DNA of 64,000 bases from an uncultured Planctomycetota bacterium (lineage in GTDB: Bacteria; Planctomycetota; Planctomycetia; Isosphaerales; Isosphaeraceae). Position 1 is the first letter of the stretch; every line of letters starts with the position of its first letter. The DNA is taken from positions 992,001-1,056,000 of the forward strand of contig CAWJTV010000011.1 of NCBI GenBank assembly GCA_963845755.1, in the 5' to 3' direction. The notes beneath the pieces are model-generated. The model had not been told where the DNA came from. It did no database searches and saw only the letters and a program-made list of their open reading frames with translations. The translations under genes and the position numbers were made by a program. Below, piece by piece: positions 4,588 to 18,409 of this stretch.

Positions 4588-7500
4588 CTACTTCGCCTTC
4601 GACTGTGTTCGCAGCCTCTCAAGAATCGCCACAAATCGTGGATCGCCGCGAAGAGCGTCGATGTCGGGATCGGTTTCGAGCTGGTAATGGTCGTCGAAGC
4701 CGGAAGCGATCGCCAGATCCAGTGCCTCGAACGAGCGATCGATGAGCTTCTTGCGCTCCGCGAGCCGTTCGGGCGACCACATAGCGACCGGGTGATCTCG
4801 GTCGAGGCTGTCGGCGGCGATGGCCAGCGCGAAGGCGCTCTGCAACCGGAACATCGCCGCGGACCGGCTCCTGCTGTTCTGGGCCGCGGCAACCTTGAGC
4901 AGGTTCTCCGCCTTGGTGCGCGCTTCTTGGGTTTTCCCGCAACGGGCCAGGGCGAGCATCCATTCGATCGCGGCTTCGAGGTCTCTGGGTTTGGTGTGCG
5001 AGTATTGCTCGCGGATCGCCAGACACTCGTCGTACAGCGTCTGCGACTCGGATCGGTTGCCCAGCTTCAGGGCGGCCGTGGCCGACTTGTACAGAAACTG
5101 AGAAAGCCTTCTCTTAATAGCGAGCAGTTCCTCGGCGTGCGCTCAGCTCACGTGTCAGGGCGAGTGATTCGTCGTACGTTTTCTTGGCCTCATTGGGCTG
5201 TCCCAGGAAGAAATGCGCATCGCCCAGGGCATCCAGGATGAACGCCAGATTCTGCTTGTAAGACTGGTTTCTCGGCTCGAGACCGAGGATCTCGCGACGC
5301 ATGCCGGCCGCTTTCTCGAAATGCTCGAGCGCGAGCCGTTCTGCCTTGTTGTGTTGATGAAGGGTCGCCATCCGACGGTGGATCTCGGCCACTGCGGTGA
5401 GATTCTCCTCATCGCGGCGCGAAGCCATGACTTCCGCGTACAAGGCGAGGGAGCGGTTGAACAGCGCCATCGCCTCCGCGGGCTTTCCCAACTGGTAAGT
5501 GACCCAGCCCAACTCATCGAGCGACCTCGCGACGAATCCCTTCCGCGCGGTTTCCGTGTACTCGTTCGTGCGCGGAGATCGGAGCACACGTTCGGCAATC
5601 GCGAGCGACCTCGAAAAGCCCTGAAACGCCCTGGCGTAATCTCGGTTCGACATCTCGAACTCGGCGAGGTTCGCGAGAGCCACCGAGAGATTCATGGCAG
5701 CGAGGTCGAAGTCCCGTGCCTCGTTCTTGTCGATCTCTTCGGCCACGGCGATCGCCTGGGCATATCGTTCCCGAACCATCTCGACATCCGCATCGGGGCG
5801 CGAACGCAGGCTATCCGCCTCGTGTAACATCAGCGTCAACTTCGCCCGCTGGTTGATCCCGTCCGAGTCGGCCCGGGAAATCTTGTCCACGAATCTCATG
5901 ATCTGACGGCCAAATTCATCCTGGACGGTCTTCGTGTAGATCGAGCTATCGAGCGTATGACGGAGATCCGTCACGGCGAAGGTGATGGTCGTTCGATAGC
6001 GATCGTACTCCCGCTTCTCACCTTCACGTGCCTTGGCCTCGGCGACACGCGCCGCTTCCGCCTCCTTCCGGCGGCTCTCAGTCCGGATCATGCCTGATGT
6101 CGTCCCCGCGATGCCGGCCAGCAAGCTCAGCAGGACCACGGTGGCGGAAATCACCGCGCCTCGGTGCTTGCGGACAAACTTCCTCATCCGGTAGGTGCGG
6201 CTCGGCGGCGCGGCCGCGACCGGCTCGTGCGCCAGATGCCGCATCACGTCCGCGGCGAACCCGTTGGCCGTCTCGTAGCGGCGCGTGCGGTCCTTCTCCA
6301 GCGCCTTCATCACGATCCAGTCGAGGTCCCCCCGCAAAGCCCGTTTCAGTTGCTCTGGCTCGATGTTGCGGCTGGCGGCGATGCTCGGCAGGGTCTCCGC
6401 CGTGCTGATCTTCGTGCTCGGTTTGGGCGGGTCGACCTCCCGCACCATCCGGAGCATCTCCAGGATAGCCCCGCGCTTGAACTGCTTCGCGTCGATCGGC
6501 GGCGAACCGACCAGCATCTCATAGAGGATCACGCCCAGCGCATAGACGTCGGTCCGGGTGTCGATGTCCATGGACGAGGGATCGGCCTGCTCGGGCGACA
6601 TGTACGTCGGGGTGCCGACGATTGCACCGGTGTCGCCAATGCTCAGGTCGGTGAGGTCAAACTCCGTCGCCTTGGCGACGCCGAAGTCGATGACCTTTGG
6701 GGTAGGCCGGCCGTCAACCTCGGTGACCAGGACGTTGCTCGGCTTCAGGTCTCGGTGAATAATCCCCTTCTGGTGGGCGTGTTGCACGGCCTGACAGACC
6801 GCGACGAACAGCTCCAGCCGAGCCTGCACCGTAAGCCGCCTCTCGTCGCAGTACGCCGTGATGGGAACGCCCTGGACAAGCTCCATCACGAAGAAGGGCT
6901 GATTGGACTGCGTGGTGCCGCCGTCGAAGACGCGGGCGATGTTGGGGTGATCCATCAGGGCCAGAGCTTGACGCTCGGCGTCGAACCGGCCGAGCACAGC
7001 CCGAGAATCCATACCGATCTTGATCAGCTTGAGAGCAACCTGGCGCTTGACAGGCTCGGTCTGATCGGCGCGGTAGACGGTGCCCATCCCGCCTTCGCCG
7101 AGGACGTCTCGGAGCGTGTAACGACCCGCGATGACCCGATCCGCGATGAAGCCGCCGCGCTGGGTGTCGTGAACGATGCTCGATGGCACGTCGATCGTGG
7201 CGTCCTGTCCGGAGACGTCGGTCGCTTCCGCGCTTGTGGCCTCGTCGATCGTGCCGCTTTGTCTGTAGACGCCAGTGGCTTCGGCCGTCCCGACATCGGC
7301 GACCGAGGCCGGCGCCTGGGACCCTGGCCGCGTTTCGCATGCCGGGGTCTGGGTCGCCGGGAGGGTTTCGGCCGAGGTGGGTTCCCACATGCCGGTGGCC
7401 TCGGCGTTCGGGACGGGGCCGGCCTGGTCCTGGACGGCGAGCGGCGCCTCGACGCGGGCGCCTGGCTGGACCGGCTCGACCTCGACCAGGGTCGGGAACG

Positions 7501-7645
7501 TCTCGCGGATCTTGTCGGCCATCTCCGGCAGGCGGTCGACGTACTCCTGCAGGTCCGGCCGCTCGCCCCGGCGATAGCGCTCGGCGAACTCCTTGGCCAG
7601 CTCGTCGAAGCGGCCATGATCGTGGGAACCGGATGATGTGGACAT
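4588..7645 (-). CDS. Hanks-type Ser/Thr protein kinase with TM helix and TPR repeats; frameshift(s) near 5100-5150
   Basis: GEGGMGTVY, VALKLIK, HRDLKPSN, DFG, GTPTYMSPEQ; TPR-like helices; C-terminal DPDIDALRGDPRF motif in ORF 4588..4959. Confidence 0.92.
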
Positions 7646-8234: not shown

Positions 8235-8517
8235 ACCTCTTATCCGCGCCGGACAGGAACCGGGACCGGAAAACCGGAATTGAGATCGGCGGACGCTCTC
8301 GGGTTCTCGGAGGGCCCTCTCGGCATCATGCATGGAGTTCAATGTGGTGACGTCGAGACCGACAGTACAGTACAGCGTGACGCAGCTCGTTGCATCGCAG
8401 CGGCAGGCGGTCTGGCTTGGGCACCGGATGCACGCAGGTCGCGGTCGCGCGGAGAAGCGTGCAGGACGGGGCTTACAATCGTCCTAGCGGGTCGAGTTGC
8501 GCGTCGGTCGGATCGAC

Positions 8518-8535
8518 GAATGGCACTAGCTTAAG
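8518..8535 (+). repeat. Possible orphan IS4-group terminal repeat
   Basis: GAATGGCACTAGCTTAAG resembles IS4-group ends (from recall) and marks the start of an AT-rich patch; no partner end or transposase. Confidence 0.3.
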
Positions 8536-8648
8536 CGTAACTCATTTTCAGAAAGAAAGTTGTATCGTGATGGTTTTCCCGTCGATGGTGCTCAGGATGT
8601 TATGAGGCTGGGTCCATGTGGCTTGATTTGAGGCTATATTCTCTATCA

Positions 8649-8843
8649 GTACGCGTTCACACCTCGGTCAACAATTGTCCGAGATTATCACTCGTTCCCA
8701 CGCTCGGCGTGGGAACGAGTCATCGCGTTCTGACGGGGTAATCGGCGGTTTCGATGCCGAATGTCACATAATCTGACATTGATATTTTCTGATGCCTGAA
8801 AACCAGACATCTTACAACTGTCAACCAGGGTGTGAACGGGTAC
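8649..8843. mobile_element. MITE (195 bp) with IS66-like termini and an internal REP hairpin
   Basis: Left GTACGCGTTCACACCTCGGTCAACAATTGT vs reverse complement of right GTACCCGTTCACACCCTGGTTGACAGTTGT (24/30); internal CTCGTTCCCACGCTCGGCGTGGGAACGAG at 8691-8719; no target duplication. Confidence 0.72.
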
Positions 8844-9344
8844 GATCGCCTGGATCAGATTCGTCACATCGAAACTGAACGGGCTGGCTTCCGTGCCAGG
8901 AAATCCGTCCGGGAGATCGCCGGTGCTGCCGAGGAAGGTCGTCTTCTTGAGGAAGTCGCCCAGCCCAACGATCCCGTCGCTGTCGGGATAGCCGTTGACG
9001 CTCACGCGGCCCGGACCGGCGAGGGTCTGCGCTCCCGCGATATCCAGGAAGAGCGTCGCGGATTGGACCGTGGCGCCGTGGGGGAGCGTCGTGATCGAGG
9101 CAATGTCGAATTCGATGTCCGAATCCACCGACAACTGGTCAGCACCGTCCACCACGACGGGAAGCAGTTGCAGCGAGTGGTCCAGGATCGGAGGAGAGTT
9201 CCCAACAATCGTCCTCGTCCCCTCATCGGACGGGCCGATGATGAGAGAATCCGCGAGGCCCGGGACGGCCGTGACGGAGACCGCCAGGGCCGCCCAGAAT
9301 ATCATCGCTGTGCGCCGTCGATTGCGCCGTTGCATCATCACCAT
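8844..9344 (-). pseudogene. Secreted PEP-CTERM-like surface protein, 3' truncated by the MITE
   Basis: RBS AGGAG, signal peptide, IEFDIASI..HGATVQSATLFL and FSFDVTNLIQ motifs typical of DNRLRE-like/PEP-CTERM beta-sandwich proteins; reading frame runs into the MITE end at 8843. Confidence 0.6.
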
Positions 9345-9556
9345 CTTGAACTCCTGATCTAGGGTGCGAGTGCCGCGCCGAGCGGATTCCCTGTCCTCCC
9401 GGGGCGGGTCAAATGTACTGAAGTCCCATGCCAAAACCTTGAGGTAACGGCCTCCTGAGCGATCGACGAGGCCCTGAGGGATGAGTCGGTCCCGGAACGA
9501 TTGCGCTCGAGGCCGCGTCCGCTCGCCCGAGCGGAACCAGGGGCCCTCGCTACGAA

Positions 9557-9582
9557 GTACACCCGCGCGGCCGAGTTGGATC
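9557..9582 (-). promoter_or_regulatory. Candidate ECF promoter GATCC-N14-GGTGTAC
   Basis: Same motif and spacing as at 9736, 12981 and 15334; oriented toward the 9344 gene. Confidence 0.65.
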
Positions 9583-9735
9583 GGGCCGGCGAGGAAATGC
9601 AGGCGACGCGAGGGATCCGCCCGCCCGAGACCGGGGGTGCTGCGGGCGCAAGATGCCCGGGTCGATCAGGCTCCTCCTCACACGATCTCCAGAGAGGTGC
9701 TCGGCCGCGGACCTATGGCTTTTCCGCCCCGGATT

Positions 9736-9761
9736 CATCCGGCGCGGCGATCCCGGTGTAT
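9736..9761 (+). promoter_or_regulatory. Candidate ECF promoter CATCC-N14-GGTGTAT
   Basis: CATCCggcgcggcgatcccGGTGTAT upstream of the di-heme gene. Confidence 0.7.
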
Positions 9762-10018
9762 CGCAGGGGAGGGACGAGCTGCCTCGCGGTCGTCGGGCTC
9801 GACACAGTGAGCGCGGGCCGCAGAGCCGTCCCTGCGTGTTGGTTGTTACCCACCCTACCATGGACGCATCAGCCTCTCCCGGCCCGAACGGCCGGGGCAC
9901 CCGCACCATCGCTCCGCCCCCGGCGCTCCGCGCGCGGGGATGGAGCCCACACGCGGACCGGCGGCCGCGCCGCCGTCGCCCTCGAGAGGCCTGAGCCGCC
10001 AAACCGGAGCACCAAGTG

Positions 10019-11203
10019 ATGAAATCCCGACGTATCGCATCCTCGGCCATCCTCGGCTCGGCCGTCGCCGGGCTCGCCCTGCTGACGCTGGGCGGCGGCC
10101 GGGGGCCCCAATTCGGCGACCCCCTGCCTGGGCTCACCGCCGACCAATTGGCCCGCTTCCAGACGGGCAAGGCCGTCTTCGAGCAAGAGTTTGATCCGCT
10201 GGGCGGTCTGGGGCCCGTATTCAACAATACGGCCTGCGCCAAGTGCCACGACCAAGGCGCCATCGGCGGCGGCAGCGACACGCTCGAGACCCGCTACGGC
10301 CAGGTGATCAACGGCGTATTCAACCCGCTCACCCAGTTCGACGGCCAGTTGCTCCATTCCATGGGGATCGGCCTGTTCAACGGCGTCAACTTCGTCGGCG
10401 AGGTCGTGCCGCCGGTGGCCAACGTCGTGGCCCACCGCCGCACCACTCCGCTGTTCGGCCTCGGCCTGGTCAACGCCGTGCCCGACCAGTTCCTCATGGA
10501 TCTCGCCCAGCTCGAGCAGGACTTCACACCGGAGACGGCCGGCCGGGCCCTTGTCCTGACCGATGTCTTCAGCGGCCAGCCGCGAGTCGGCCGGTTCGGA
10601 TGGAAGTGCCAGATCGGCACGGTCCTCACCTTCAGCGGCAATGCCTTCCTCAACGAGATGGGCATTACGACCCCATTTTTCCCGCACGAGAACCCCCCGG
10701 GAGGAGACGTCGCCCTGCTCGCCGCGAATCCGGCCCTGACCAACCCCAACGACACCACCGAGACGGTGATGCAGCTCGCCGACCATACGACGTTCCTGGC
10801 GCCCCCGCCCCGGCTTCCCTTTTCGCCCAAAGCGACGCTCGGTGAAGCGGTATTCCTGGGGATCGGCTGCGCCAACTGCCATCTTCCCGCCATGCGGACC
10901 GGGCCCAATGAGGTTGCGGCGCTGGACGAAGTTGTCTTCTTTCCGTACTCCGATTTCCTGGTGCACGACATGGGTGCCCTCAACGACGGGATCGCGCAAC
11001 CGCCCGCCACGGGCCAGGAGATGCGGACGGCCCCACTGTGGGGCGCCCGGATCCGGACGAGTTTCCTTCACGATGGCCGCGCCAAGACAATCCGAGATGC
11101 GATCTTGGCTCACGACGGCCAGAGCCTGGCGGCCCGCAATCGCTTCGCCGCGCTGCCGAGACGACAGCAGGCGCAACTCCTGGAATTCATCAACAGCCTG
11201 TAG
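10019..11203 (+). CDS. Di-heme oxidoreductase family (DHOR-like) c-type cytochrome
   Basis: Signal peptide, GLGPVFN..CAKCH, TPLFGLGL, GRFGWK, GCANCH, SDFLVHDMG, RTAPLWG, FLHDGRA. Confidence 0.9.
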   Translation: MKSRRIASSAILGSAVAGLALLTLGGGRGPQFGDPLPGLTADQLARFQTGKAVFEQEFDPLGGLGPVFNNTACAKCHDQGAIGGGSDTLETRYGQVINGVFNPLTQFDGQLLHSMGIGLFNGVNFVGEVVPPVANVVAHRRTTPLFGLGLVNAVPDQFLMDLAQLEQDFTPETAGRALVLTDVFSGQPRVGRFGWKCQIGTVLTFSGNAFLNEMGITTPFFPHENPPGGDVALLAANPALTNPNDTTETVMQLADHTTFLAPPPRLPFSPKATLGEAVFLGIGCANCHLPAMRTGPNEVAALDEVVFFPYSDFLVHDMGALNDGIAQPPATGQEMRTAPLWGARIRTSFLHDGRAKTIRDAILAHDGQSLAARNRFAALPRRQQAQLLEFINSL

Positions 11204-11396
11204 GTCGCGATGACCCCGGCTCGACCGGCTCGGGAACCGAGACCCGACGCTGGAGATCGGTCAGGGATTCGAGGGCCCACGTAACCGAGGCCCGCGCGCG
11301 CGCCACTATATAGAGTACGCGGGGAGATGCGAGGGGGGCTGTAGGCTGACGGATGCGTCGGCCTCGGTACCCCCGTTCTCCAAGAGATCCTTCCAC

Positions 11397-11567
11397 TTGC
11401 TCGACGGCCGCTTCGGTCTCACCGATGAGAGGCGGACCCTCCTGCAGCTCGGTCGGGAGCTGGGCATCAGCAAGGAGCGCGTCCGTCAGATCGAGACCCG
11501 GGCCTTGCGCAAACTCTGGGACACCGACGAGGCGCGGAGGCTGGCCCGGGCGGCTTGGAGTACGTGA
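11397..11567 (+). pseudogene. Isolated sigma-70 region 4 (RpoD/RpoH-like HTH) fragment
   Basis: Translates LLDGRFGLTDERRTLLQLGRELGISKERVRQIETRALRKL; no region 2 upstream. Confidence 0.8.
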
Positions 11568-11658
11568 GTGATTCGCACCGGCGTGCGATCGGATCGGGGA
11601 CGGGACAGTCAAGGGACCGCGCCGTGTCGAACCCGGTCGGTTCGTGGGGGAGAAGACG

Positions 11659-12735
11659 ATGATGCGGATGGGAAATCGGCCGGCGAGCAACGGGGAGTAC
11701 GGCGACGAGGCGAATCGGCCGTCAGCGAGCGAGGACCGGAGCGACGAGAAATTGATGGCCCAGCTCGCGGATGGCCAGCCCGAGGCGCTCGGGCCGCTGC
11801 ACAGTCGCTATGCCGCGCTGGTCTTCGGCCTTGTGGCCCGATCGCTCGATCGGGACGCCGCCGAGGAGATCAGCCAGGAGGTCTTCCTGGCCGTCTGGCG
11901 GCACGCCGCGACCTTCGACCCGGCGCGGGGCTCGTTCCGCACCTGGCTTACTCGGATCGCCCAGACGCGCGTGCTCAACGAGGTGCGGCGCCGCGGCCGG
12001 CGGCCTCGCATCAAGTCAAAGTCCCATGAACCCGTCGAAGTGGATCGACCCGACTCCGGCCCCGGACCGGCCGAGGAGGCGTGGCGGGCACATCGCCGCG
12101 ACGCCGTGCGGGCGGCCGTGGACGCCCTACCGTCGCCCCAGCGCAAGGCGCTGAGCCTCGCCTTCCTCGACGACCTCACGCACGAGCAGGTTGCCGCCTT
12201 CCTCGATGTGCCGCTGGGGACGACCAAGAGCCGGATCCGCGCCGGGGTCAGGGCCCTGCGCACCCGGCTGGCTCCCCTCGTGGCGGCGGGCCTGATCGTC
12301 ACGGGGCTCGCCATCGCCGGCCTTTACGAGATCGATCGGCAGGCCGCCCTCCACCGCCGAGACCGCGCCTTGAGGCTGGTCACCAACAGTGACGTCGTGC
12401 CGCGCCGCCTCGGGCCGGCGCCGGGGATCAACCCCGCGGCCCACGGCAACTACCGCGGCCGGCCCGGCGTCAACCTGGCCGTGCTGACGCTGTCCTACCT
12501 CGACCCGGCCCCCGCCGGCTACGAGTATCGGGCCTGGGCCTTGCACCAGGGGCGCTGGACCTTGCTCGGCCGCGCGACGCTCGAGGGCGAAGGCCGCAGC
12601 CTCATCATCGCCGAGGGTCCCGATTTGACAGTCCTCCCGGATCAACTCCAGGTGACGCTGGAGGCGATCGGCGCTCATGCGGGTGCCGGTGCCGTCCCGA
12701 CCGGGTCGCCGATCGTCCGTTGGCCGACCCCATAA
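11659..12735 (+). CDS. ECF sigma factor (SigK-like) fused via a TM helix to an RskA-like C-terminal domain
   Basis: AEEISQEVFLAVWRHAATFDPARGSFRTWL; VAAFLDVPLGTTKSRIRAG; TM LVAAGLIVTGLAIAGLY; LDPAPAGYEYRAW and LQVTLE..PTGSPIV RskA-like motifs. Confidence 0.88.
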   Translation: MMRMGNRPASNGEYGDEANRPSASEDRSDEKLMAQLADGQPEALGPLHSRYAALVFGLVARSLDRDAAEEISQEVFLAVWRHAATFDPARGSFRTWLTRIAQTRVLNEVRRRGRRPRIKSKSHEPVEVDRPDSGPGPAEEAWRAHRRDAVRAAVDALPSPQRKALSLAFLDDLTHEQVAAFLDVPLGTTKSRIRAGVRALRTRLAPLVAAGLIVTGLAIAGLYEIDRQAALHRRDRALRLVTNSDVVPRRLGPAPGINPAAHGNYRGRPGVNLAVLTLSYLDPAPAGYEYRAWALHQGRWTLLGRATLEGEGRSLIIAEGPDLTVLPDQLQVTLEAIGAHAGAGAVPTGSPIVRWPTP

Positions 12736-12789
12736 TCCGGCGGCCCACACCGGGTCCTCGAGGGGGCGACGAAATGACCGGAGATCACC

Positions 12790-12828
12790 AGCCGGAGGCA
12801 CGGCCAAGACTGGCCCGTGTCTCCGGCT
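12790..12828 (+). terminator. GC-rich stem-loop after the sigma gene
   Basis: AGCCGGAGGCACGG...CCGTGTCTCCGGCT; no U-tract. Confidence 0.35.
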
Positions 12829-12980
12829 CGCGTTGGGATCCGATGGCCCCCGCACTCCCGGGCCTTTAGCCACGTCGTCGGGGATGTCGGGGATCGACGG
12901 CGGTCACGGCCTGTCGATCCGCATGATCCCTCTCAAACCGCATGGGGGTTCCGCAACGGGTCTCGAAGAGGGGAGAGACC

Positions 12981-13006
12981 AATCCAGGACGGACGGGCCG
13001 GTGTAT
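12981..13006 (+). promoter_or_regulatory. Candidate ECF promoter AATCC-N14-GGTGTAT
   Basis: AATCCaggacggacgggccGGTGTAT upstream of the small ORF at 13156. Confidence 0.7.
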
Positions 13007-13155
13007 TCACTACCGGAGAGGCGAGATCATCATCGGGGGCCATTCTCTCCCGGGCGGCCAGGGATGCCCGCCCGGCCCCTCACCTCGCTGGCGAGCGAGG
13101 GACTTCAAGATCGAAGGCGACACCAAGGTCCCACAACCCATCAGGAACATCGACC

Positions 13156-13398
13156 ATGAGCTTCGATCCTCACTCGCGTCGCTTCAGCCCGCACTGGATG
13201 TTGCCGGCAATCGAGACGGACGGGGAGGAGACGTCCGAGGCGCCGGACGCGTCTCCCTTCGTCTGGGACGAGGAGTCGCCGAACGCCCCCGCCGAGCAGG
13301 TTCTTGATGACGCACTCGAGCAGATCGCGTCGGAAGCGTGCCGTGTGTGTCCTCTCTGCGGGGCGATCGTGGCGAGAGATGGAACCGTGGTGAGCTGA
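13156..13398 (+). CDS. Small acidic hypothetical protein (80 aa) with a C-x2-C-x2-C motif
   Basis: AGGA RBS-like site, GC3-rich codons, ACRVCPLCG near the C-terminus; preceded by the shared promoter motif. Confidence 0.55.
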   Translation: MSFDPHSRRFSPHWMLPAIETDGEETSEAPDASPFVWDEESPNAPAEQVLDDALEQIASEACRVCPLCGAIVARDGTVVS

Positions 13399-13499
13399 GA
13401 ACCATCCAGCGCGATCTCCCCTTAGAGCGCGTAACGATTGGGTTGCGCACGCCCTTGGGTCGATGCGAATTCACCCCCCTGGATCCCCCCTTCGCAAGG

Positions 13500-15080
13500 C
13501 AGTGAGTTCAGGGTTTTCCTCTGGCTCTAGGGGGCCCCGTCTTTTGCTCATGTGCTTGCTGGAGAACCCGGTAGGTCAACGTATGGTTGCCGAGCACACG
13601 CTTCTTGACTTTCTGATGACCGCCACGGCCGGAGCTGGGCGCTTTCCACCAACGGTCGCTCCAGGCGCCGCGCAACCGCTCCCGCAAGTACGTGCGCACC
13701 TCACTCGCCGTCGGCACGGCGCCCAGCAACGACAGCAACGTCTTGACCTCAACCAACTCGCTGACCGACACCATTTGCCGCTCCACGTCACCGAAGAGCT
13801 TCTCGTTGGAGATCGCCTTGGCCTCACACTCTTGATGCGATGCCAGGTGCGTCCGCACGACTTGCAGGGCGTTGTACGGCAGCAGGCAGAACGACAACTG
13901 GAACAGGACCGCCTTCGGCTGCGTGCCGATGAGGTGCTTCAGCGAGAACACGTCGGTGATCTGCTGGAAGACCGTCTCCAAACTCCAGCGACTGTGATAC
14001 GTCGTGAGCATCGCCTCGGCGGAATACGTCGCCTCGTCCAACAGGTCGGTGATCACGCCCAACTCCTTGCCGTCGGCCAGATGCTTGGTGATCCGGCGCA
14101 CGTACACGCGGTCGGCCTTGGCGACCTTGCCCAGCCAGCCCCACTCCTGCACGATCCGGCGCCCGTCGGCGTCGCGGAGCTCCTGCGCCGGCCGGGACGC
14201 ATCGGCAACGAACGTCGTGTTGCTGCAGTAGCGGATCAGGAAATGGCCGCCGGCCTTCAACACCTCCCGGGGAAAACTCAGGTTGCAGTAGAGTCGGTCC
14301 AGGACCACCAACCACAACTTCTCCCCGCGCCAACTCCGCCAACTTCGGCAGCAGGCCCTCGGTGAGAGCCGCTTCACCGGCTTCGCCGTCGAGGTGGCCC
14401 ACCATCGCGACGGCCAGGCCCGTCCGCAGGTCCAAGCCCACCGACGCCCGCGCACCGAGGATCCCCGCCTGCAAGCCGCGCAACGGCTTGAGGAGCCGGC
14501 GAACGTGCTTGATCGCCTTGCCGTCGGCCCCGAAGACTTCGAACCCGGCCCAACACGCCGGCAACGGCTCCACGGCCAGGGTCTCAGGCAGGACCGCGTT
14601 GAGCCGCTGGGTGCCTTCGGCGAGCAGGGCCTCGCTGAGGGGCAGGGGCAGGTTCCCCAACTTGTCATAGGACGAGGTGATCGAGACCGGCAGCGTGCCC
14701 TGTTCCTGGGCCCGCGTGAAGGCCTGGTAGCCACTCCCCTCGTGCTCGATCAAGGCATCGGTGATCAGATGGGCCAGCGTGCGGAACTTCAACTGCTTCT
14801 CGAAGCAGGGCCCGCGATTTCGCGCCCAGAGATCATCCAGCCACGAATCCGCCATCGCGTAGTGCAGCAACCGCCACACCGAGTCGGCCAGAGGAAGCCG
14901 ACTCAGCACCTCGGCGGCAAACGGGGTGTCGTTGAGGACCGAAGGACTCCGGACGGCTGCGGAAAAGACGGCGACCTCCATAACCGAAGGACTCCTGAGA
15001 GGACCGAAGGTGCAATCCGATGGGTATTTATGATACGGACCTCGGATCCGCGGTGGAACGCCAAGACCCTGAACTCACTG
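13500..15080 (-). mobile_element. IS4-family insertion sequence (1581 bp)
   Basis: Perfect 15-bp terminal inverted repeats CAGTGAGTTCAGGGT; 11-bp direct repeat CCTTCGCAAGG at 13489-13499 and 15081-15091. Confidence 0.93.
13508..14981 (-). CDS. IS4-family DDE transposase, frameshift near 14320-14335
   Basis: FGADGK (D1), VVLDRLY (D2), YHSRWSLETVF (YREK-like E motif), split between ORFs 13824..14981 and 13508..14734. Confidence 0.9.
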
Positions 15081-15333
15081 CCTTCGCAAGGGGGGAGGAT
15101 TGAGACGGAGCGACCCGTTTCCTCTCCCCCCTTACGAAGGGGGGATCCAGGGGGTTCTTCGGGAGTGAGCGTCGAGTGTATGCAACACAACCGTGAAGCG
15201 CTCTAGCTTGGACCGTGCCACACCCCTCGCATACAGCATCGGGAATGAGCTACGGACCATTGGCCGCCCGATAAGGCCTATCCCTAGTCAACGCGGCCTC
15301 CCTCCCCGCCCTCGCGAATTCCCCCTCCGAAGT

Positions 15334-15359
15334 CATCCGATCAGGCCATCCCGGTGTAT
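15334..15359 (+). promoter_or_regulatory. Candidate ECF promoter CATCC-N14-GGTGTAT
   Basis: CATCCgatcaggccatcccGGTGTAT about 80 bp upstream of the phosphoesterase start. Confidence 0.7.
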
Positions 15360-15439
15360 CCCATGCGAGGGGTCGAAACCCCTCACGGTGGCGTGGCCGG
15401 GTCGAAATCCGCGCCGAGATGGGCCGAAGGAGGACGTCA

Positions 15440-16396
15440 ATGATGGCCAATCAAGTCAATAGTGATCATGAGGGCGATGGCGTGGATCGTCGCGGGTTCT
15501 TGAAGTGCATGGCCTGGGCCGGCACCGGGCTCGTCTGGTCGGTCGGCGGTGGGGTCCTTTCATCGCGGGCTTTCGGCCAGGACGCCGGGCGGGCGGGGGC
15601 GGGCAGCTTCTCCTTCGTCCAGATCAGCGACAGCCACATCGGGTTCGGCAAGGACCCCTACAAGAAGACCGTGAAAGCCACGCTCCAGGAGGCCGTGGCC
15701 AGGATCAATGCGCTTCCGCAACGACCCGACTTCCTGATCCACACCGGCGACCTCACCCACCTGTCGACCCCCGAGGAGTTCGACACCGTCGCCGAGATCC
15801 TCAAGGGGGTCAAGGCCGGCAAGATCTTCTACGTGCCCGGCGAGCACGATGTCATCGGCGACGGGTCGGAATACCTCAAGCGGTTCGGCGAGGGGACCAG
15901 GGGTGAGGGCTGGTATAGCTTCGGCCACCGAGGGGTCCACTTCATCGGCCTGGTCAACGTCGCCGGCCAGGGCACCGACAAGGGGCTGGGCGTCCTCGGC
16001 GACGAGCAGCTCGACTGGCTCAAGGCCGACGTGGCGGGGCTCGCCGCGAGCACGCCGATCGTCGTGTTCGGCCACGTCCCGCTGTGGGCGGTGTACCCGC
16101 AGTGGGGCTGGGGTACGCAGGACGGCGAGCGGGCGCTGGGCTGCCTCAAGCAGTTCGGTTCGGTCACCGTGCTCAACGGCCACATCCACCAGATCGCCCA
16201 GAAGGTCGAAGGGAACATGACTTTCCACACGGCTCGCTCGACCGGGTTCCCCCAGCCGGCGCCCGGCCAGGCGCCCGCCCCGGGCCCATTGAAGAACGTC
16301 CCCGCCGAGAAGCTGCGTACGATGCTCGGACTGACGAGCGTGAATTATATCACGGGTCGCGGGCCGCTGGCCGTGGTCGACGAGGCGCTCCAGTGA
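15440..16396 (+). CDS. Tat-exported metallophosphoesterase (CpdA/Icc-like)
   Basis: DRRGFLK Tat motif; SDSH, TGDL, PGEHD, HVP, GHIH motifs; RBS AAGGAGG. Confidence 0.92.
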   Translation: MMANQVNSDHEGDGVDRRGFLKCMAWAGTGLVWSVGGGVLSSRAFGQDAGRAGAGSFSFVQISDSHIGFGKDPYKKTVKATLQEAVARINALPQRPDFLIHTGDLTHLSTPEEFDTVAEILKGVKAGKIFYVPGEHDVIGDGSEYLKRFGEGTRGEGWYSFGHRGVHFIGLVNVAGQGTDKGLGVLGDEQLDWLKADVAGLAASTPIVVFGHVPLWAVYPQWGWGTQDGERALGCLKQFGSVTVLNGHIHQIAQKVEGNMTFHTARSTGFPQPAPGQAPAPGPLKNVPAEKLRTMLGLTSVNYITGRGPLAVVDEALQ

Positions 16397-16934
16397 GCCG
16401 CTACGAGGCGCCCAGCCAACCGTCATCCGGCGAGGGACGGTGGTCCCTCGTCGGCCTCGAACTCCCCGAGAATAACAGTCGGAGGATGGACCGATGATGA
16501 AGACATTCGAAGAGCTCCCGTGAGATCTCAGGCGCCGGGTAGACGCGGTCAGGGATCGTTTCGCGGCGACCTCGCAGGCCGGCGCGGCGCCGCAATTCGA
16601 TCTCTAATTGGAATTGGTGCCGGCCCCGGTGCTTCTCATGCTGATGAGCGAACTGCTGGTCTTCGCAGGCCCGACCGGTGACTCGACTCGTAACGGGAGA
16701 CGACTAGCGCGTCCGCGGCTCGCCGCTCCTCCTGGCGAATCGCACTTGCAAGCAGCCTGTGGCCGTGCAGTCAACCCGGAGGCGCACCATGATGTCGCCG
16801 CTTCCGAAGACCCGTATCTGGCCTCGCTCTACAGGGGGCCGGTCGCACGCAGACGACTCCCTTCAATCTGGCGCAGGCGCTCTTCGGTCGGATCGACCGA
16901 AGGACCTGAGAAGGATTTCTGCGGCTCGATGCGT

Positions 16935-17367: not shown

Positions 17368-18409
17368 CTACTTCTCGGTAGGCAGGAGACCTGCGGTCAT
17401 CTCGCGGAGGCGTACCGTGCCGTCAGCATCTCCCGTGGCAAGCCGACTCCCATCCGGTGAGATTGCCAACGAAGCGACCAGGCCAGGTTGCTGCTGCCAG
17501 GTCGATTCGCGGTGGACCTTCATGGCGTCCCAGGTCTGGATGAGTCCACCCTGAGCCGCCGTCACGAGCTTTCGGCCATCGTTTATGAACGAAACCGATA
17601 TGATCATACGATCAACGTGGTTCACGATCCGCGCGCGGAAGGCCCGTGCCGACATCCCACAGTCCAATTGTCCCATCGGTGCTCCCCGTCGCCAGGGTCT
17701 GGCCATCGGGTGAGAAGGCCATTGTGGGGATGGGTAAGTTGTGCCCGGTTAGCCTCATACGCAGTTGCCACGAGGGATCTGCCCGCTCCCAGAGCAAGAC
17801 CAGGCCCTCGGCGCTCGCCGTTGCCAGGATTTTCCCAAGCGGAGAAAAAGCCACCGCGTTGATCGTCCGATCGTGTCCGTGGAGGACACAACGTACGCGC
17901 GCCTTGACAAGGTCCCGGATCCGGATCGTTTGATCGAAGCTGCCCGTCACGAGACTGCCACCATCGGGGGAGAACGCCACCGCCGTGACCGTCGCCGTGT
18001 GTGACGGAAAGGTCATCGATTCCGCGTCGGCGGCCACGTCCGAGAGCGTGATCGAGCCATCAATATTGCCGACCGCGAGACGCGACCCGTCCGGCGAGAA
18101 TGCGAGACAATACGCGCCGTCGCCATGTCGCGGAAACGTGTGCTGAATCCGGCCGTCATCCGCGTCCCAGAGGATCATCGACCCATCGCCGCCCACCGAG
18201 CCCAGGAGCCGGCCGTTGCTCGAGAACACCACCGACCTGACGCGCTCCGGATGCCTTCCGATCACGTTCCGCGTTGATGGATCGGAATCTTCCCCGGAGT
18301 CCCGGAGCACAACCCACAGTCCCGCGCTCATCGCCAGAATCAGGATCACGGCCCACCGACTGGTCATCGCCGAGGCCCTCGTCTCACCCTCCTGCACTCT
18401 CTCGTTCAT
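17368..18409 (-). CDS. Membrane-anchored WD40 repeat protein; frameshift near 17630-17645
   Basis: N-terminal TM helix, seven repeats of the AFSPDG..LA.G..DG.I.LWD type across ORFs 17612..18409 and 17368..17706. Confidence 0.9.

Follow-up and report, generated by a model that had tools for sequence, protein, structure and literature searches.

A stretch of 64,000 nucleotides from an uncultured planctomycete of the family Isosphaeraceae (assembly GCA_963845755.1, contig CAWJTV010000011.1, positions 992,001 to 1,056,000 of the forward strand; the whole stretch is referred to here as the window, and coordinates without a prefix are counted from its first letter) encodes an extracytoplasmic function (ECF) sigma factor that continues, within one polypeptide, into a membrane helix and an exported domain of the RskA_C type. 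Around its gene stand four copies of the bipartite element ATCC-N14-GGTGTA. This motif is a conserved, oriented, bipartite element that accompanies the fused sigma family and does not accompany the unfused relatives of that family. The picture that emerges is probably one of a compact, positively autoregulated ECF sigma system contained in a single polypeptide, with a local regulon and perhaps with activation by release from the membrane. As to the element, it is likely, to judge from comparison of sequences, that RNA polymerase holoenzyme carrying the fused sigma initiates transcription at ATCC-N14-GG[T/C]GTA sites.

The element in the window and in the genome

Four exact matches to ATCC-N14-GGTGTA occur across the window, all of them inside 6 kb, where 0.04 would be expected (the mean of 100 dinucleotide-preserving shuffles, none of which reached four and the richest of which held one). 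An exact scan thereby agrees with an earlier note on the same DNA, which had described four intergenic sites with the flanks listed below, each facing a gene, and had seen the motif nowhere else in the window. Indeed, none of the four sites is overlapped by an open reading frame (ORF) that is likely to be coding, as judged by a GC3 filter, and every site faces a gene, the leaders from site to start codon being 214 nt for a secreted protein, 255 nt for a di-haem oxidoreductase (DHOR), 150 nt for a small protein with a CPxCG motif and 60 nt for a twin-arginine translocation (Tat) metallophosphoesterase. The cluster is composed as follows.

8688..9344, minus strand (start at 9344): secreted protein without a family; ORF with a signal-peptide-like N-terminus and no Pfam or NCBIfam match
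9558..9581, minus strand: site 1, ATCC-N14-GGTGTA, exact match (GATCC..GGTGTAC); divergent from site 2 and the weakest of the four
9737..9760, plus strand: site 2, ATCC-N14-GGTGTA, exact match (CATCC..GGTGTAT); precedes the DHOR gene
10016..11203, plus strand: exported DHOR/DUF1111 di-haem oxidoreductase; PF06537, E 8.9e-48; two CxxCH motifs
11397..11567, plus strand: remnant of a sigma region 4, 56 aa; PF04545, E 1.1e-11
11659 (or 11644)..12735, plus strand: ECF sigma–RskA_C fusion (Pfam, NCBIfam)
12982..13005, plus strand: site 3, ATCC-N14-GGTGTA, exact match (AATCC..GGTGTAT); precedes the CPxCG gene
13156..13398, plus strand: 80-aa CPxCG protein, acidic and cytoplasmic; no Pfam or NCBIfam family
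13485..15096, minus strand: insertion sequence, IS4-like, with DDE_Tnp_1 (PF01609) in two overlapping ORFs; 34-nt terminal inverted repeats
15335..15358, plus strand: site 4, ATCC-N14-GGTGTA, exact match (CATCC..GGTGTAT); precedes the metallophosphoesterase gene
15359..15418, plus strand: leader of the phosphoesterase gene, 60 nt, conserved; two predicted hairpins, with GGTCGAAA in or beside each loop
15419..16396, plus strand: Tat metallophosphoesterase, GpdQ/CpdA-like; PF00149, E 3.8e-13; twin-arginine motif DRRGFLK

The earlier note had also called for a scan of the whole genome. Across the 14.27-Mb genome (49 contigs; 28.5 Mb scanned when both strands are counted) there are 24 exact matches at N14, and between 6 and 26 at the spacings from N10 to N19. 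Since the N14 count falls within this range, the ~20 matches outside the cluster are background, and the signal consists of four sites in 6 kb. Likewise, when two mismatches are allowed, the window holds 33 matches where 33.2 are expected. A position matrix was built from relatives only (13 sites from four related genomes) and run on both strands of the whole genome, and in it the sites at 9737, 12982 and 15335 take genome ranks 1, 2 and 3 with scores of 32.9, 29.4 and 25.9, the next match, at 24.2, having an altered −10 element. By this matrix there is no convincing site outside the cluster in this genome, nor was a DHOR paralogue on contig C41 (62% identical) recovered. The next-best matches of the matrix, C29:322338, C3:76060 and C40:30742, were considered as further regulon members and set aside as probable chance matches, having changed letters in the −10 or −35 element and no related gene downstream. 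A search for promoters of the sigma-70 type before the four genes found none, the sole match (8836–8809) being at chance level.

The fused sigma factor

The fusion is laid out as sigma-2 (~11800–12003), sigma-4 (~12100–12261), a membrane helix (~12277–12333) and an exported beta-sandwich (~12388–12705). Its place among the ECF sigma factors is given by PF04542 (60.1 bits), PF08281 (41.6 bits) and TIGR02937 (75.5 bits, cut-off 42.9), and ECF sigma factors are also its best structural matches. When the model of the entire protein was compared with known folds, the C-terminal domain found only weak immunoglobulin-like matches, and no solved relative of RskA_C came up. In the window protein itself RskA_C is weak (E 0.0047, under the Pfam cut-off); in the aligned family, PF10099 is found at E ≤ 0.01 in 30 of 32 members, with a best value of 8.6e-12. 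Among named NCBIfam models the best are PRK12519 (138.2 bits, cut-off 222) and SigK (NF007228/PRK09646, 125.9 bits, cut-off 226), such that the window protein is best regarded as SigK-like and not as a SigK equivalog. The earlier description of this central ORF as a ‘SigK-RskA-like fusion’ is in keeping with all three lines, namely the Pfam sigma-2 and sigma-4 matches, the RskA_C of the family and the presence of SigK among the best models.

The family comprises at least 120 database clusters, 58–83% identical and ~325–380 residues long, with a common architecture. A zf-HC2 or RskA_N domain is found in none of the 32 aligned members, and likewise in none of the cross-phylum members scanned. 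The nearest unfused relatives, which match over the sigma part only (37–43% identity), are mostly labelled Actinomycetota, and of the ten whose +1 gene was scanned, nine have RskA_C there, six zf-HC2 and four RskA_N. What this comparison indicates is that the cytoplasmic anti-sigma domain is lost in the fused family, the RskA helix and the outer sensor being kept.

The junction between the two halves is short. Sigma-4 (...GTTKSRIRAGVRALRTRL) ends at about residue 208 and the hydrophobic helix (APLVAAGLIVTGLAIAGLY) begins at about residue 212, i.e. ~3–5 residues on. In an AlphaFold model made with the family alignment the region from 195 to 247 is one unbroken helix, followed by a beta-sandwich at 254–359 with pLDDT above 90, the confidence of sigma-4 being only moderate. 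The membrane helix has a conserved proline at its start and is rich in alanine and glycine; a composition of this kind would be suited to cleavage by a site-2 protease. The translated window protein contains no cysteine. A database protein from other contigs, P0118 (211 aa), is identical to it for 192 residues and then follows the +1 frame of the window DNA (at ~12235); a one-base difference within the recognition helix of sigma-4, either a strain variant or an assembly error, may explain the split.

The element beside the fused sigma in relatives and other phyla

Full-length orthologues of the fusion occur in four of the 40 related genomes searched (G001, G015, G006 and G012), the other matches being to the sigma part only, and in all four the exact motif lies beside the orthologue. 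Of the exact matches in each genome, the orthologue locus holds three of four in G006, seven of 14 in G012, one of 14 in G001 and one of nine in G015; those of G012 all lie on the same strand within 23 kb, and G015 has in addition a GTTGTA variant. Moreover, the genes that follow recur. The motif stands before DHOR in G001, G015 and G012 (the DHOR orthologues at loci L013, L014 and L016, each downstream of a motif, are 75–87% identical), before the 80-aa gene in G006 and G012, and before the phosphoesterase in G015 (the GTTGTA variant), G012 (at two sites) and, with a gene for an amicyanin-like cupredoxin intervening, G006. In G006 a motif is also followed by a gene for a Tat ferritin-like protein and then by the sigma gene.

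A wider survey, in which each species is represented by one genome, covers 80 loci and 1.17 Mb, of which 43 loci are full-length (L018–L060), five partial (L061–L065) and 32 sigma-only (L066–L097). The full-length loci are labelled Planctomycetota/Isosphaeraceae, Chloroflexota, Thermoanaerobaculia, Holophagae (Acidobacteriota), Binatia, and deltaproteobacterial/Polyangiaceae and Bacillota metagenome-assembled genomes (MAGs), and the Holophagae among them include three cultured Geothrix species, labelled G. paludis, G. limicola and G. terrae (L051–L053). Over the 80 loci there are 39 exact matches at N14, as compared with 1, 0, 3, 0, 2 and 1 at N11, N12, N13, N15, N16 and N17, respectively. Thirty-three of the 39 are spread over 24 full-length loci (of 43), and six over three of the five partial loci; in the 32 sigma-only loci, which are unfused (actinobacterial and others), there are none. 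Eight Holophagae loci without an exact match (L049, L051–L053 and L055–L058) have ATCC-N14-GGCGTA, at a fixed spot ~1.6 kb upstream of the sigma gene.

With both forms admitted (GG[T/C]GTA), 29 of the 43 full-length loci have a site on the same strand in the 4 kb that precede the sigma gene. The orientation is strongly biased: upstream of the sigma gene (145 kb) 31 sites lie on its strand and one on the opposite strand, and downstream (151 kb) the numbers are 11 and 0, the chance expectation, estimated from base composition, being ~0.2 per strand in that DNA. In seven loci 34–153 nt lie between the end of the site and the point where the match to sigma begins. As far as sequence can tell, the motif has the position and orientation that an autoregulated ECF promoter would be expected to have. 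Sixty-six distinct sites give the consensus ATCC[A/G][A/G]...C-C-GG[T/C]GTA-T. Divergent pairs of motifs, 85–155 nt apart, occur in three distant genomes (9558–9760 in the window, 8650 minus/8759 plus in L015 and 2792 minus/2946 plus in L065), which suggests a standard bidirectional promoter layout. When the degenerate pattern was run on three Geothrix and two planctomycetal genomes (17–42 matches each), no further clusters of sites were seen.

Genes, leaders and intruders

A Pfam scan of 53 ORFs that lie behind motif sites finds the phosphoesterase in 13 loci, the others including stand-alone cupredoxins, DHOR (in Planctomycetota), a TatC gene and the sigma gene itself. Fusions of a beta-propeller with a cupredoxin lie immediately before the sigma gene in Chloroflexota and Bacillota MAGs, a phosphoesterase–Rieske–sigma operon is headed by a GGCGTA site in two Holophagae loci (L056 and L058), and cytochrome c′ is also among the genes near sigma. 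By tblastn, 25 of the 43 full-length loci have the phosphoesterase next to sigma, as against none of the 32 sigma-only loci; DHOR turns up in five loci, and the 80-aa gene in two of the 43. On these counts the fused sigma and the Tat phosphoesterase form the core of the system, accompanied by a set of redox and metal proteins that depends on the lineage. The closest solved structures to the metallophosphoesterase are the phosphohydrolase 2dxl/2zo9 and Rv0805; for the di-haem protein there is no sequence relative among solved structures.

The 80-aa CPxCG protein is represented by 128 database clusters, nearly all of exactly this length and all unnamed. Its N-terminus is conserved, and its invariant residues are M1, P5, R9, C65, P66, C68 and G69. 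A prediction of its complex with the sigma-2/sigma-4 part gave a score of 0.04 against a mark of 0.32, a result that weighs neither way on binding. Its leader (13006–13155, ~150 nt) is conserved and has a predicted structure of 28 pairs, five of which are changed on both sides among four sequences; a copy of this promoter-plus-leader module precedes a second sigma gene in G012. The shorter leader of the phosphoesterase has 72 invariant columns among four orthologous leaders, which makes it more conserved than the protein that it precedes, and its consensus fold comprises 13 pairs, not one of which is changed on both sides. There is no Rfam match to it (15359–15418), and it could be an RNA element or two direct repeats for a DNA-binding protein. 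Across 8500–16600 the known RNA families give nothing meaningful, the single match being to a snoRNA at E 0.58.

Site 2 probably serves the sigma gene as well as DHOR, by read-through. The remnant between the two (11397–11567) aligns with the C-terminal end of longer ORFs, the gene being complete at this position in relatives: one ORF of 426 aa in G001 and, in G012, one of 392 aa and others that are split. All of these ORFs have sigma regions 2 and 4 and find their best models among those of the SigB/RpoD/RpoS type, far below the cut-offs. These belong to the following feature of the related loci.

L013:10499-11779, L017:8315-9493 and L016:7290-8508, minus strand: second sigma-70-family gene, 392–426 aa, in G001 and G012

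One copy of this gene in G012 is itself preceded by ATCC-N14-GGTGTA (L016, 9206, minus strand), which hints at a sigma cascade in that genome.

At the left end of the cluster the gene of the secreted protein is probably truncated, its 3′ end running into a dispersed repeat: the last ~55 codons of the ORF (8688–8870) resemble six other places in the genome at 63–84% identity. An orthologue of this protein is absent from the four related loci L013–L016. The insertion sequence at 13485–15096, of which the genome has six more copies at 97–99% identity, is an intruder between the CPxCG gene and the phosphoesterase promoter and stands outside the system; the repeat into which it appears to have inserted is ~75 nt long, dispersed and present in dozens of copies. 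Two flanking genes complete the neighbourhood.

5114-7645, minus strand: Ser/Thr protein kinase that ends in TPR repeats, shortly before the cluster; no connection with the system seen
17612-18409, minus strand: WD40 protein; no link to the system seen

Proposed mechanism and alternatives

The sigma factor is predicted to lie on the inner side of the membrane and the RskA_C beta-sandwich on the outer side, with the single-pass helix between them, and in the arrangement proposed the beta-sandwich is the sensor. The tether would keep the sigma inactive, since the helix that recognises the −35 element is, in the model, continuous with the membrane helix. Release would come about by regulated intramembrane proteolysis, in which a periplasmic cue, perceived through RskA_C and possibly with help from the phosphoesterase, sets off cleavage first at site 1 and next at site 2 and so frees the sigma; this step has roughly even chances and is proposed by analogy, because of two precedents. 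According to the relevant passages of two papers, RskA is cleaved by Rip1 (Veyrier et al. 2020, PMC7509140) and the sigma/anti-sigma hybrid IutY is freed by Prc and RseP (the review PMC8999054). Holoenzyme with the freed sigma would then read ATCC as the −35 and G(T/C)GTA as the −10 element, and would drive at least three and probably four neighbouring units, namely DHOR (with sigma), the CPxCG gene, the metallophosphoesterase and the truncated secreted-protein gene. Positive feedback would arise where the sigma gene stands behind a motif-driven gene; in the window that gene has no site of its own, and autoregulation would therefore need read-through from the DHOR promoter. As to the cue, the products bind haem, copper, iron–sulphur or two metal ions, and a periplasmic metal or redox state is therefore suggested, as a guess from the kinds of protein that are regulated.

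Several observations weigh against this scheme. The interval between DHOR and the sigma gene contains no site, even when two mismatches are allowed, and it is 440 nt long and includes the gene remnant. Site 9558(−) scores only 17.8 in the relatives-only matrix (genome rank 13), within the genomic background. Fourteen of the 43 full-length loci have no upstream site, eight of them with less than 2.4 kb of upstream sequence and six with a full 10 kb. The survey loci are mutually related and were scanned with the very motif under test, so that their counts overstate independence, and the degenerate pattern has 17–21 matches in each Geothrix genome, such that the single site there is supported by its conserved position alone. 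The second sigma-70-family gene lies within the cluster of both G001 and G012. Finally, the annotated loci show no protease gene that is conserved next to the system. The genome does encode site-2 proteases (PF02163), which counts in favour of the scheme, though weakly, the family being near-universal. The proposal of the earlier note, that the fused sigma reads the motif, is largely supported: it is favoured by the co-occurrence in 29 of 43 full-length against 0 of 32 unfused loci and by the matrix ranks of three sites, and it is weakest at 9558(−) and at the sigma gene without its own site.

A different view of the tether is that the sigma acts while still anchored, in the manner of ToxR or CadC and without proteolysis. 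The regulon would then be local because its genes encode exported proteins, whose coupled transcription, translation and export, along with those of the sigma, would keep the locus near the membrane and accessible to the anchored protein. The fused family has no anti-sigma domain from which release would be needed, the strong sites of this genome all lie less than 6 kb from the sigma gene (and in G012 seven of 14 exact matches lie in 23 kb), most of the products are exported by Tat or signal peptides, and the annotated neighbourhoods conserve no protease gene, all of which this view would accommodate. It is nonetheless rather unlikely, in that the ~3–5 residues between the −35 recognition helix and the membrane helix leave RNA polymerase and DNA scant room, intramembrane proteolysis is the rule for the known relatives RskA and IutY, and literature searches turned up no sigma factor that is active when membrane-bound. 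An elaborated form, in which a cis-acting sigma is never released, its neighbourhood is held at the membrane and the Tat metallophosphoesterase serves as periplasmic co-sensor through RskA_C, is unlikely. So too is the idea that the restraint comes from the 80-aa CPxCG protein and not from the tether, this protein being a soluble anti-sigma factor or co-regulator that provides negative feedback and may sense metal. Its cytoplasmic nature, the strict conservation of its length and of an invariant CPxCG motif over 128 clusters, and the fact that its gene is always motif-driven and adjoins the sigma gene in G000, G006, G012 and L020 would fit such a role; but it was seen only in loci labelled Planctomycetota and in G006 and G012, and its presence in two of the 43 full-length loci rules it out as a general mechanism of the family. 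Moreover, it does not resemble the four-helix anti-sigma domain and has no Pfam match.

The remaining alternatives concern the element itself. Were the motif read by another factor, either the second sigma-70-family protein or a DNA-binding regulator, the fused ECF sigma would be a mere co-regulated neighbour. The clustering of the 392–426-aa sigma gene in G001 and G012, with one motif-preceded copy in G012, and the unusual conservation of spacer and flanks within each promoter type lend this some colour. Yet in the window the second gene is reduced to a 56-aa remnant, its best other copy in the genome being 48% identical and on a different contig, and it is not seen in G015 or G006 or among the 53 annotated ORFs of other phyla, whereas the motif goes with the fused ECF in 29 of 43 loci, with its unfused counterparts in 0 of 32, and often stands 34–153 nt before the ECF gene. 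Its asymmetry and strand specificity (42 sites on the same strand and one on the opposite) are, furthermore, promoter-like and unlike those of a palindromic operator. Another reader is, on the whole, highly improbable. Chance, or membership of a dispersed repeat, has next to no probability as an explanation of the four sites. The ~20 background matches in the genome, and the repeats and insertion sequence in the region, would speak for it, but none of the 100 shuffles reaches four, the sites lie outside the repeats, and orthologous promoters keep the motif in different genera and phyla. The shuffles, the matrix and the cross-phylum loci refute this explanation for three of the sites, 9558(−) being the exception.

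Comparison with known systems

By its nearest named sigma family in NCBIfam, the protein of the window stands closest to SigK of Mycobacterium tuberculosis, with which, through the partner RskA, it shares an extracytoplasmic RskA_C domain. The corresponding group, ECF19, is characterised in Supplementary Text S2 of Casas-Pastor et al. (2021, PMC7826278), in the passages that deal with it, by RskA-like partners and by ‘ATC in −35, CG or TG in −10’, a pattern that fits the 66-site consensus; SigK–RskA is, moreover, a small cassette of sigma and a few exported neighbours. As in ECF19, the RskA-like partner has one membrane helix, here fused C-terminally, and the phyla listed for the group in that text overlap those of the fused family, a likeness at the level of description. 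The differences are that sigma and RskA_C form one polypeptide here, that RskA_N and zf-HC2 are missing, and that the targets are metallophosphoesterase, cupredoxin and DHOR in place of the fasciclin proteins of SigK. Nor does the window protein have any cysteine, unlike SigK, and the disulphide switch of the latter is therefore inapplicable. The same supplementary passages bear on an expectation of the earlier note, that GGTGTA departs from the common CGT-type −10 element. This does not survive comparison, since eight Holophagae loci have GGCGTA, and the text gives CG or TG for ECF19, ‘CGTA’ in the −10 of ECF18, and GGAACC/CGGTGTA for ECF204.

Comparable in architecture are IutY of Pseudomonas putida (ECF243) and the actinobacterial groups ECF48, ECF52 and ECF53, in each of which one polypeptide runs from a cytoplasmic ECF sigma through a membrane helix to a C-terminal domain that is exported. 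The activation by regulated intramembrane proteolysis that is proposed here is, according to the review PMC8999054, shown for IutY. These proteins, however, keep an anti-sigma domain, FecR-like or zinc-finger, before the membrane, whereas here sigma-4 abuts the helix, and the sensor domain and regulon also differ. In the entry of Supplementary Text S2 on ECF57 (formerly ECF01-Gob), a planctomycetal group without an anti-sigma factor and with a C-terminal membrane anchor of two helices, the authors suggest that activation may occur by release. That entry describes about two helices, WD40 or other extensions, an invariant pair of cysteines in sigma-2/sigma-4 and no conserved promoter motif; the fused family, by contrast, has one helix, RskA_C, no cysteine (in the window protein) and a sharp motif.

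In gene neighbourhood the likeness is to ECF206 and ECF207 (the original ECF26), whose entries in the same text place a calcineurin-like phosphoesterase at −1 or −2, a cupredoxin or cytochrome c nearby and an RskA-like membrane partner. According to these entries the partner is a separate zinc-finger anti-sigma factor at +1, unlike here, where the sigma gene is followed by the 80-aa CPxCG gene or the phosphoesterase, and the promoters are also unlike, being GGAATAAA/GTC for ECF207 and none conserved for ECF206, as against ATCC/GGTGTA. ECF204, which its entry confines to Actinobacteria, has an identical −10 element, CGGTGTA, and some members fused to an RskA-like anti-sigma factor; its −35 element is GGAACC and not ATCC, and no conserved neighbourhood is given. 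The passages on RskA in Supplementary Text S2 of PMC7826278 describe no protein in which sigma-4, membrane helix and RskA_C follow one another without an anti-sigma domain, although its tables, or Wiegand et al. 2020, may do so. A search of the literature on membrane-tethered, membrane-bound or membrane-anchored sigma factors returned nothing relevant.

Significance for the fused family

The usual restraint on an ECF sigma factor is an anti-sigma domain, carried by a partner protein or by the sigma polypeptide itself. In the fused family this domain has been dropped, with the helix and the sensor kept, and it follows that the tether itself may be the switch, a simpler design than that of the sigma/anti-sigma hybrids so far described. 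The combination of a sharp promoter with a tiny regulon moreover allows sigma, promoter and targets to be predicted together, and in this regard the GGCGTA of the Holophagae, as a natural single-letter change in the −10 element, would be informative on specificity. Beyond the window, the system points to a recurrent, uncharacterised periplasmic module in which a Tat metallophosphoesterase, together with a cupredoxin, cytochrome or Rieske protein, goes with an RskA-type ECF system in at least two separate ECF lineages.

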